A stretch of DNA of 64,000 nt from contig JAWRIR010000142.1 of assembly GCA_040268405.1 (NCBI GenBank), positions 478-64,477 on the forward strand, written 5' to 3'. Both the position numbers and the translations under genes were made by a program. This DNA is from Thermoproteota archaeon (GTDB lineage: Archaea > Thermoproteota > Bathyarchaeia > Bathyarchaeales > Bathycorpusculaceae). The notes under the pieces were generated by a model that saw only the letters and a program-made list of their open reading frames with translations, made no database searches and had not been told where the DNA came from. Every line of letters starts with the position of its first letter. The stretch's first letter is position 1. Below, one piece after another: positions 1 through 53,395 of this stretch.

Positions 1-329
1 ATTTGGTTGCATTCTTGGTTGCATAGGCGTTGGCGTGTTTGGGTTTGTGTTCCATCGCAGGTTCCTGCTCCGTTACAGATGTTGTCGCCGTCACATGCTT
101 GTAGGCGTTGTCGGGTTTGTGTGCAGGTTTGGTTTTGCTGGCAGTCAGTGCATTGTGTTCCGTCTTGTGTGCATGAACCGTCGCAGTCTCTTATTTGTTG
201 TTGAGTTTGGTCTTGTGTTTGAAGGATGTCACCGTTTAGGCTTTGTGCTAAAGGTGAAGCTGCAACTAATGGGACAAGAACAACCAGCCCCAGTATCATG
301 CTAACCACGAGGATTGCTTTCTTGTTCAT
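1..329 (-). CDS. Secreted Cys/Gln/Thr-rich low-complexity protein (3' end runs off the window; absent from the ORF track)
   Basis: Manual translation from ATG at 329: MNKKAILVVSMILGLVVLVPLVAASPLAQSLNGDILQTQDQTQQQIRDCDGSCTQDGTQCTDCQQNQTCTQTRQRLQACDGDNICNGAGTCDG...; signal peptide; SD GGAGGTGA at 344-337. Confidence 0.85.
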   Translation of the reverse strand, partial: MNKKAILVVSMILGLVVLVPLVAASPLAQSLNGDILQTQDQTQQQIRDCDGSCTQDGTQCTDCQQNQTCTQTRQRLQACDGDNICNGAGTCDGTQTQTRQRLCNQECNQ

Positions 330-397
330 TCTTTTTTCACCTCCAACTTTTTTCTGCTGAAAAAATACTATGTCGGCTGGTTGGTTTAGGTGTTGGC

Positions 398-454
398 TGA
401 AACGAAACGTTTCAAAAAGTGAAACAGTCTCGAAACAGCTTATAAGTTGTTTCA
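398..454. promoter_or_regulatory. Divergent promoter with GAAAC/GTTTC inverted repeats
   Basis: TGAAACG-AAA-CGTTTCA at 398-414; TGAAACA at 420; near-perfect palindrome GAAACAGCTTATAAGTTGTTTC at 432-453 centred on TTATAA. Confidence 0.7.
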
Positions 455-479
455 AATGTATATTTTGGCAGAAAGAATC

Positions 480-1016
480 ATGCAGAAACCATTATTCGTT
501 CTCGTAATCGCCCTGCTATGTGTAAGTGTTGTAGGGTTACTTCTTTTTTCTTCGACATTTTTAGGTGATAGCACAAACGGTAGAGGTCACATGATGCAAG
601 ACTCCGGCGTTGTATTGGATAGTTCAAACGTTGGGTGGCTGCTTCTCTTTGTTGTGCCTTTGGTTGTCGCGTTAGGCGTGATAGTTTACATGGTTGCGTT
701 CCCCAAAATCAAACAAACCGCCGCCACAGTTGAAGCCCCCCAAAAAGCCACTCAGTTACCTCATAACAAGCAAACCTTAGACGCCGTCCTCAAAGTGCTA
801 AACGAGGATGAACGCAAAGTAGTTGAAACACTTGCTTCAACCAAAGAGGGTAGCATGCTGCAAAAGGAAATCCGTTGGAAAACAAACCTGTCCAGAGTGA
901 AAGTTCACCGAGTAGTCGCACGTCTTGCCGAGCGGGGTATAGTTTTGGTGGAAAAGCAAGATAACACAAACAAGGTTACTCTTGCCGAATGGATAACGAA
1001 GCCCTCGCCTACTTAA
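480..1016 (+). CDS. Membrane-anchored winged-helix regulator (COG2512-like)
   Basis: Two hydrophobic segments, then LNEDERKVVETL...GSMLQKEIRWKTNLSRVKVHRVVARLAERGIV wHTH; ATG 480 preferred over the ORF-track start at 447. Confidence 0.8.
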   Translation: MQKPLFVLVIALLCVSVVGLLLFSSTFLGDSTNGRGHMMQDSGVVLDSSNVGWLLLFVVPLVVALGVIVYMVAFPKIKQTAATVEAPQKATQLPHNKQTLDAVLKVLNEDERKVVETLASTKEGSMLQKEIRWKTNLSRVKVHRVVARLAERGIVLVEKQDNTNKVTLAEWITKPSPT

Positions 1017-52492: not shown

Positions 52493-53395
52493 ATGTTAAC
52501 GTGTAAGGGAACAGTTGTCACCATGCTTCTCGTGATAGCTATAGCGCTATTTGCTGTTGGCAACAGTGTAGCTGCCGTATCTGAGTTTCAGGTAGCTTCA
52601 ACCAGTTTACACGTTTTCAGAGACGGTTTAATACATGTTAGTCAAACGATAACTGTTGATGAATTAGCATCCTCGGTAACATTGGAGCTTTTGACTGATT
52701 CAGTTGAAAACGTGTTGATTCTTGATAATGACAAGTTACCTGTTGATTTCACTATTGAAGGTTCAAACATAACGATACTTTCCTTGGGAGAGCAACAAGT
52801 TAGCATTGAATATGATACAATGGCGCTGACGAATAAAGATGCACAAACATGGACTCTGTTGACTAAAAGTTCTTGCGAGTTGATGGTTTCTTTGCCTCCG
52901 AATGCTACACTGTTTTATTTGAGCCAAATGCCTTCAGCCATAAACATTGTTGACAGCGAAATCAGGTTAACTCTTCCTCCGGGCAACTGGGAAGTAAGCT
53001 ACACCTTGCCTTTGGTCACGCAGGAAAGCGAAAACCACCAAGACACCAGCGGAACAACCGGCACCACAGCATCCTTTGACCCACTTATCATTCTTTCAAT
53101 AATAGCTGTTGCCATTGCAGTGGCGGGTGTTTCGGCATTAATGTTTGTTAAACGTACCAAAAAACCGAATATGAAAAAAGTGCTCAAGACCAATCCGCAA
53201 CTTGCTCCAGATGACCAAAAAATCATCGAGTTTTTAATTGAAAAAGGCGGAACCGCTTTCGAGGCAGAGATTCGTGAAAGATTCCCCGATATGCCCCGAA
53301 CAAGTTTGTGGCGACTTGTAAGAAGACTTGAAAGATTAGACCTCGTAGAAATAACCAAGATCGGTTTAGAAAATCAAGTAAAACTTAAAAAATAA
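52493..53395 (+). CDS. Membrane-spanning regulator: extracellular beta domain, TM, cytoplasmic wHTH (COG2512-like)
   Basis: Signal/TM; beta-rich ectodomain; TM; LAPDDQKIIEFLIEKGGTAFEAEIRERF...SLWRLVRRLERLDLVEI. Confidence 0.85.
   Translation: MLTCKGTVVTMLLVIAIALFAVGNSVAAVSEFQVASTSLHVFRDGLIHVSQTITVDELASSVTLELLTDSVENVLILDNDKLPVDFTIEGSNITILSLGEQQVSIEYDTMALTNKDAQTWTLLTKSSCELMVSLPPNATLFYLSQMPSAINIVDSEIRLTLPPGNWEVSYTLPLVTQESENHQDTSGTTGTTASFDPLIILSIIAVAIAVAGVSALMFVKRTKKPNMKKVLKTNPQLAPDDQKIIEFLIEKGGTAFEAEIRERFPDMPRTSLWRLVRRLERLDLVEITKIGLENQVKLKK

Follow-up and report, generated by a model that had tools for sequence, protein, structure and literature searches.

Transmembrane transcription regulators, which act on transcription while residing in the cytoplasmic membrane and combine a DNA-binding domain with a transmembrane (TM) segment in one polypeptide, form an established class, with representatives in the majority of archaeal genomes (Demey et al. 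2023, PMC10269533). According to PMC13286277, ArnR and ArnR1 of Sulfolobus acidocaldarius are membrane-bound one-component regulators of the archaellum, with an N-terminal helix-turn-helix (HTH) domain and C-terminal TM helices. Here we consider a possible further representative, encoded at positions 480-1016 of a 64,000-nt stretch of Bathyarchaeial DNA (C142:478-64477, called the window below) from an assembly of 2.74 Mb (167 contigs, 42.6% GC). The predicted protein of 178 amino acids (aa) is divergently oriented to a small secreted protein, and the 150-bp spacer between the two genes contains a regular series of TGAAAC-type hexamers. Our reading, which we consider probable, is that a transmembrane one-component regulator binds these helically phased hexamers and controls both its own promoter and the divergent promoter of its secreted partner. 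To our knowledge, ArnR, reportedly studied by Lassak et al. in 2013 and by Bischof et al. in 2019, is the only archaeal membrane-bound transcription factor system investigated experimentally, and next to nothing has been learned so far of how genes are regulated in Bathyarchaeia, an uncultured lineage abundant in sediments.

The Bathyarchaeial regulator resembles ArnR and ArnR1, compared here by description, in being archaeal, in having an HTH-type domain and two TM helices in one polypeptide, in forming a paralogous pair, and in its likely action on a promoter of a surface or secreted product. However, its domain order is the reverse one (TM1, TM2, linker, winged helix), and ArnR belongs to another lineage, has another operator and target, and activates from boxes upstream of the arlB promoter. 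The bacterial systems ToxR/ToxS, TcpP/TcpH and CadC are also cases of one-component membrane signalling with a cytoplasmic DNA-binding domain on a TM anchor; they often involve a small extracytoplasmic partner, as here, and ToxR binds direct-repeat half-sites. Still, these proteins combine an N-terminal OmpR-type winged HTH (wHTH) domain with one TM helix and a sensor that is folded in the periplasm, whereas the Bathyarchaeial regulator has a predicted hairpin of two TM helices and no folded ectodomain, would act at archaeal promoters served by TATA-binding protein (TBP) and transcription factor B (TFB), and shows no match to Trans_reg_C (the ToxR-like, OmpR-type wHTH) among its 13 Pfam matches at E <= 1. 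Soluble repressors of the MarR, ArsR and TrmB types have the same fold, use short inverted repeats over the TFB-recognition element (BRE) and TATA box or over the transcription start, and commonly autoregulate. Unlike them, the regulator is membrane-anchored by prediction, has no dimerisation helices flanking the wHTH domain, and scores below the Pfam cut-offs for TrmB (20.1 bits, cut-off 25.6), MarR_2 (17 bits, cut-off 27) and HTH_27. The predictions give it a DNA-binding domain and at least one TM segment in a single polypeptide, as in the definition of transmembrane regulators, and place it outside the definitions of ArnR, ToxR, MarR and TrmB.

The spacer sites are arranged with a precision that had escaped the earlier note, made from the letters of the window. 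The note had listed TGAAACG-AAA-CGTTTCA at 398-414 and a second TGAAAC 22 bp farther on; both are present, the former with perfect 7-nt arms and the latter at 420-425. The hexamers start at positions 398, 409, 420 and 431, that is, in an exact 11-bp register. Six GAAAC/GTTTC pentamers fall within 55 bp, the expectation being 0.19 per 56 bp (0.0033 per base), and the 2.74-Mb genome contains no other 56-bp stretch with at least five of them (expected count 0.002). The pair GTTTCA-N5-TGAAAC occurs once genome-wide (0.72 expected per fixed spacing). Boxes of the type TGAAACG-N0-6-CGTTTCA occur four times in the genome, three of them inside the window: one in this spacer and two at 54.5-55.0 kb. 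The fourth, C123:13434-13450 (TGAAACGAGACGTTTCA), is a perfect box with 5-nt hexamer spacing, like the 398-414 box; it has a copy of a dispersed intergenic repeat 60 nt before it and, approximately 120 nt downstream, a gene encoding a membrane-anchored transglutaminase-like protein. Relaxed searches for hexamer pairs, aimed at a wider regulon, gave counts near background, and no Rfam family matched positions 1-1300 of the window. GAAAC was also considered as a generic BRE of this genome and rejected: among 304 promoter-like TATA sites just 5 have it upstream, and the general upstream signal is simply A-rich.

The arrangement is retained in evolution. We compared 29 orthologous loci, namely that of the window and 28 others taken from genomes of GTDB species, whose proteins are 43-89% identical to it, the closest relative (L006) standing at 89%. 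A core GGTTTAGaTG-N5-TG(T/A)AAC-N5-GTTTCA-N5-TGAAAC-N2-CTTATAAG is common to all of them, down to 43% protein identity, the consensus of the intergenic core being GGTTTAGaTGTT.G.TG(T/A)AAC-N5-GTTTCA-N5-TGAAACA.CTTATAAg. Hexamer 3 is TGAAAC in every locus and hexamer 2 is GTTTCA in 28 of 29, while hexamer 1 is TGTAAC in 22 loci, TGAAAC in six and CGTAAC in one. Hexamers 2 and 3 are always separated by 5 nt; hexamers 1 and 2 are 5 nt apart in 26 loci and 4 nt apart in the other three. CTTATAAG is kept in 27 of 29 loci, with hexamer 3 ending 2 nt before it in 26. It lies 34-42 nt from the regulator ATG, which implies a very short leader, if this is indeed the TATA box. The GGTTTAG box, present also in distant subfamilies, is found at approximately 43-54 nt from the start of the small gene, a distance that fits a TATA element followed by a leader of about 27 nt with a Shine-Dalgarno sequence. 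Conservation of the repeats at fixed distances therefore points to the core of a compact bidirectional promoter, in which the invariant operator would consist of three helically phased hexamers between two TATA-like boxes about 47 bp apart.

Orthologous loci devoid of GAAAC/GTTTC repeats, which the earlier note regarded as decisive against its proposal, were not encountered: the repeats are present in 29 of 29. The element that the note had placed at the centre of autorepression, a 22-bp palindrome covering the TATA box, fared differently. The palindrome (432-453, GAAACAGCTTA/TAAGTTGTTTC) does enclose TTATAA at 440-445, though with one mismatch (10 of 11 arm positions pair), and neither arm is conserved. 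The upstream arm is the copy formed by the 11-bp duplication, found in the window and L006 alone among the 29 loci, and the downstream arm, GTTTC past the TATA box, is present in 12 loci at variable spacing (GAAAC or GTAAC occupies this region in four more). Hence the TATA-wrapping palindrome is a recurrent accessory rather than a conserved element.

The analysis of 40 more distant family loci shows which features of the operator accompany the protein. In some clades (L049, L055-L057, L082-L085) the pattern is GTAAC-N4-GTT(T/A)C-N5-7-G(A/T)AAC beside a TTTAGAT box, while in one subfamily (L058-L060, L072, L073) TGAAAC recurs three or four times in direct orientation, at intervals of 11-13 bp, next to a GGTTTGGATGTTGACTGAAAC box. 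At least three G(A/T)AAC pentamers in 45 bp were observed in 18 of the 40 upstream regions and in 8 of 359 control tiles, several of the misses being due to wrongly chosen start codons. Given the direct-repeat subfamily and the phased sites of the distant clades, the half-site and the helical phasing follow the protein family, and the orientation of half-sites does not. Phasing without fixed orientation would fit DNA-binding domains held by flexible linkers on a membrane-embedded oligomer, and not a rigid symmetric dimer; such flexibly tethered domains could read helically phased half-sites whatever their orientation.

The regulator itself belongs to a family that, wherever the source is named, is confined to Bathyarchaeia (all homologues and related contigs with a name come from Candidatus Bathyarchaeia/Bathyarchaeota metagenome-assembled genomes). 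Its close homologues, about 170 aa long, number more than 240, and 266 clusters were obtained (50% identity, E <= 1e-10). Of 301 genomes sampled from the class, 62 contain the family, which is represented in 20 of 107 genera. The domain is assigned to Pfam DUF7343 (PF24034; residues 109-168, 33.0 bits, E = 5.4e-8, gathering cut-off 27.6), and a six-frame search of the genome gives the 480-1016 regulator 35 bits. Our literature search found no paper mentioning DUF7343 and nothing specific to Bathyarchaeial promoters. An in-frame ATG at 456, used by gene callers (186-aa record), would add MYILAERI to the N-terminus; since it has a counterpart only in L006 among the orthologues, the conserved start is at 480.

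The AlphaFold2 model, built on a 23-sequence alignment, consists of two TM helices joined by a low-confidence loop, a disordered linker (residues 74-95, about 22 residues) and the wHTH domain. The loop (residues 32-47, window 573-620) is 16 residues long and contains G34-R-G-H-M-M39, in agreement with the short GRGHMM loop and near absence of an ectodomain already noted from the sequence. Other loop motifs in the family include GRGHGM and GMMGGMMG. Across 208 family members, the inter-TM loops contain 20.8% Gly, 8.4% Met and 0.2% Lys, and the C-terminal cytoplasmic part is Lys/Arg-rich, with 5.7% Gly, 1.4% Met and 10% Lys. Because of this contrast between a Lys-poor loop and a Lys-rich C-terminal part (the positive-inside rule), the data fit a topology with both termini and the wHTH domain in the cytoplasm and the Gly/Met(/His)-rich loop as the only exposed part. 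The invariant positions of the family alignment are G36, P60 (within TM2) and F74-P75, and, in the recognition helix, R139, V140, H143, R144, R148, L149 and R152. The best fold matches of the wHTH domain in PDB are MarR/ArsR-type winged helices; by sequence, the solved structures include no close relatives, only weak matches to winged helices of RPC6 and MarR. The features of the locus are collected in Table 1.

Table 1. Features of the divergent locus (window coordinates; protein features are predicted, and promoter elements are candidates).
Feature	Position	Strand	Remarks
Transmembrane transcription regulator gene, 178 aa	480..1016	+	TM1, Gly/Met/His loop, TM2, flexible linker, DUF7343 winged helix
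Membrane hairpin	483..698	+	TM1, residues 2-31; extracytoplasmic loop, 32-47 (GRGHMM); TM2, 48-73, with invariant P60
Winged-helix DNA-binding domain, residues 96-173	765..998	+	AlphaFold2 confidence score (pLDDT) 82-90
Recognition helix, residues 139-152, RVKVHRVVARLAER	894..935	+	AlphaFold2 model and family alignment
Small secreted protein gene, codons 1-109 (5' part)	1..329	-	Remainder beyond the window edge; full open reading frame C142:405-806
Shine-Dalgarno GGAGGTG (complement of 338-344)	338..344	-	8 nt before the ATG of the small gene; GGAGGTG or a one-off variant in all loci
GGTTTAG(A/G)TG box, candidate TATA element of the leftward (small-protein) promoter	383..392	.	29/29 loci; 53 nt from the ATG; putative TATA role
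Hexamer 1, TGAAAC	398..403	.	Left arm of the perfect 17-bp palindrome 398-414
Hexamer 2, GTTTCA	409..414	.	11 bp after hexamer 1
Hexamer 3, TGAAAC	420..425	.	11 bp after hexamer 2
11-bp tandem duplication, GAAACAGTCTC + GAAACAGCTTA	421..442	.	Creates a fourth in-phase hexamer, CGAAAC (431-436), beside the TATA box
CTTATAAG, candidate TATA box of the regulator's own promoter	439..446	+	34 nt before the ATG; putative promoter role
GTTTCA, right arm of the 22-bp palindrome	449..454	.	Just downstream of the TATA box

The divergent gene was described in the earlier note as encoding a secreted Cys/Gln-rich protein and as running beyond the window edge. Both genes are placed as the note had them, and the complete reading frame retrieved from the contig encodes 133 aa, beginning with a Sec-type signal peptide; the mature part is rich in Cys, Gln, Thr and Asp (it has 12 Cys, and Gln, Thr, Asp, Arg and Asn make up about 58% of it). 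It is predicted to be disordered, with pLDDT below 50 over residues 25-133 of the AlphaFold2 model; it has no Pfam or NCBIfam match, and its 15 homologues are all unannotated and Bathyarchaeial. All 29 loci have a divergent small secreted gene or its start preceded by the Shine-Dalgarno sequence, and a partner of this type is present in most. Moreover, a small low-complexity gene with a signal peptide and a strong Shine-Dalgarno sequence is the sole constant neighbour of the regulator across loci. In one subfamily a GMMGG-type motif is common to the regulator loop and the secreted partner; in a permutation test on 9 pairs, however, loops had no more tripeptides in common with their own partners than with shuffled ones, the observed value being attained in 268 of 2000 permutations, which is not significant.

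The window contains a second module of this kind at 54 kb, taken in the earlier note for a paralogous copy of the same regulatory logic. Its regulator (52493-53395, 300 aa) has a TM helix and a large ectodomain and scores 25.9 bits for DUF7343 in the six-frame genome search. As in the 480-1016 module, a DUF7343 wHTH domain behind a TM segment goes with TGAAAC inverted repeats and with small secreted Q/T/D/C-rich putative targets. The differences concern the size and ectodomain of the regulator, its sequence (26% identity over TM2 and the wHTH domain), the promoter context, which is TGTCCCTTAAGT, and the spacing: the boxes TGAAACG-N2-CGTTTCA have 4 nt between hexamers, one base less than the operator of the 480-1016 regulator. 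The small secreted proteins of the two modules are 31% identical (E = 3e-6). Since DUF7343 is shared, the small proteins are related and the same half-site occurs at another spacing, the two modules are distant paralogues, as proposed; their layout, however, is not the same, the 52493-53395 regulator being convergent with a 363-aa gene and its boxes lying more than 1.1 kb beyond its 3' end. The 52493-53395 regulator is present in 9 of 31 relatives. Among its orthologues with 46-48% identity, two of three relatives have the 4-nt box in a directly divergent spacer, followed by TGTCCCTTAAGT.

The suggestion that the spacer length may separate the specificities of the two regulators gains comparative support from these data, since 5 nt is found in 26 of 29 loci here and 4 nt at the boxes of the other regulator. 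The recognition helices, which the note had proposed to align, can be aligned and differ in sequence (SRVKVHRVVARL against PRTSLWRLVRRL). One more box with the 4-nt spacing, C62:11637-11652 (TGAAACAAGCGTTTCA), precedes by about 50 nt the gene of a Pro/Gly-rich small protein with a signal peptide (MKKLINTLAIVAILALAVLSVSAVVKA...) and may be a further member of the regulon of the 52493-53395 regulator. A third DUF7343 membrane regulator is encoded at C127:48757-49686 (309 aa, with an ectodomain, a TM segment and a wHTH domain; 61.9 bits), with no GAAAC-type boxes nearby.

The sequence data establish how the protein is built, that its pairing with the small gene is conserved, and that the sites are conserved, phased and unique in the genome. 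Taken together, these features suggest the following mechanism, in which we infer that the regulator binds DNA, which boxes belong to which promoter, whether control is positive or negative, and what is sensed. The N-terminal helical hairpin would anchor the regulator so that both ends of the chain stay inside the cell and only the 16-residue Gly/Met/His loop is exposed, and the wHTH domain would remain in the cytoplasm, tethered by the disordered linker (about 22 residues). The winged helix would recognise the G(A/T)AAC hexamers, three in the typical locus and four here after the 11-bp duplication, which fill the approximately 47 bp between the divergent TATA-like boxes and, being 11 bp apart, lie on one face of the DNA. 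Occupancy of the sites would control jointly the promoter of the regulator and that of the small, disordered Cys-rich secreted protein. The promoter-proximal hexamer (hexamer 3, here its duplicate) abuts the TATA box at the place usually bound by TFB, and in the window the stretch from the TATA box to the expected transcription start contains an additional GTTTCA; therefore the regulator is expected to repress its own promoter. Judged by those archaeal repressors that act at or downstream of the BRE/TATA region, autorepression is the likelier sign; as activators also bind next to the BRE, it is proposed with somewhat less than even confidence.

Because the regulator has no folded sensor domain, its input might come from the secreted disordered partner as an extracellular co-sensor or ligand, a suggestion that we regard as rather unlikely and that has two versions. 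A soft metal, e.g. Cu(I), might be bound both by the loop with its Gly, Met and His residues and by the partner rich in Cys or Met, the partner serving as an inducible extracellular metal buffer, or else the regulator and its partner might form a peptide-based autoinduction loop. Should the partner be the signal or co-sensor, this would be a new route of extracytoplasmic sensing in archaea, and either version would represent a new kind of archaeal extracytoplasmic signalling circuit. The module offers a compact 178-aa protein and a well-delimited operator of about 47 bp, whose three phased hexamers lead to clear predictions for mutation and for which evolution has already provided variants of spacing and orientation; the genome also contains a paralogous system whose spacing is one base different. 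The module may thus serve as a tractable model of how a membrane-tethered factor reads DNA and tells related sites apart on archaeal TBP/TFB promoters.

Several observations do not sit easily with joint control by a membrane-tethered regulator. Most loci have a degenerate hexamer 1 (TGTAAC); a symmetric wHTH dimer would not usually be expected to use half-sites in alternating or direct orientation; there is essentially one operator per genome; and the region around the box at C123:13434 has no counterpart among 30 relatives. The sign of regulation is not readable from the position of sites alone, as archaeal activators also bind beside the BRE. Finally, the sites could be bound by an unrelated cytoplasmic factor. 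The hexamers would then be the operator of that factor, and the membrane wHTH protein would serve for protein-protein contacts or tethering. The link between the protein and the sites comes from sequence comparison, and the 52493-53395 regulator, with a different recognition helix, also goes with TGAAAC half-sites, both of which leave room for such a factor. Still, in different subfamilies and genera the sites go together with the regulator family, the rest of the genome lacks them, the recognition helix of the regulator has invariant basic residues, and no other regulator gene is a constant neighbour of the module, all of which makes a separate factor improbable.

An alternative that keeps the regulator as the DNA-binding protein assumes that its membrane-bound form is inactive and that a signal triggers intramembrane or juxtamembrane proteolysis, freeing a soluble wHTH domain that binds the hexamers. 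Substrates of Site-2 proteases typically have a helix-breaking residue in the TM segment and a disordered linker, and the regulator has both the invariant helix-breaking P60 in TM2 and, after F74-P75, a disordered variable linker. However, no protease gene is conserved beside the module across loci, the linker of 22 residues is long enough for DNA contact, and the characterised ArnR and ToxR act from the membrane (PMC10269533); proteolytic release seems unlikely, if slightly less so than a separate cytoplasmic factor. The least credible explanation is that the repeats are due to chance, are non-functional low-complexity sequence, or are a copy of the dispersed intergenic repeat of this genome. 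A copy of that repeat does lie just downstream of the regulator (about 1030-1090), but its sequence is unrelated to the operator, the pentamer cluster is unique in the genome, and the 29 loci retain it base for base, each start codon being at a fixed distance from it, so that the conservation data effectively refute this explanation. Binding of the hexamers by the membrane-tethered regulator itself remains, in our view, the probable reading.

Other genes around the module vary. The start of the contig (C142:1-290) falls inside a P-type ATPase gene, located downstream of the small secreted gene on the same strand; its counterpart in the closest relative, L006:899-3328, is a full TIGR01647 equivalog (plasma-membrane proton-efflux ATPase, type IIIA; 737 bits, cut-off 615.5). 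Co-transcription of the ATPase and the small gene is uncertain because of a T-rich stretch and AT-rich sequence between them, and the ATPase is restricted to the four closest loci. Depending on the clade, the neighbours are a P3A H+-ATPase, VIT1, ArsR with ACR3, ZupT with Dps and Fur/PerR, or a Ca/Na antiporter. Metal- and cation-related neighbours were seen at L015, L017, L018, L021 and L031, at L023, and at L009, including VIT1 directly after the regulator, followed by ArsR and ACR3. These varied neighbours, together with the Met/His-rich loop and the Cys-rich partner, give hints, though not decisive ones, of cation or soft-metal sensing. Assignment of a function from the neighbourhood was dropped, the neighbour sets being too inconsistent between clades.

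The dispersed intergenic repeat begins right after the stop codon of the regulator and occurs in the window also at about 12110 (+) and 26460 (-), with approximately 85 copies in the genome. Its sequence is ccaaCCTATTTGGagCCTATTAGGatCCTAATAGtGGTTCTATGyrGAAACCTATAGGGGgtaggt...

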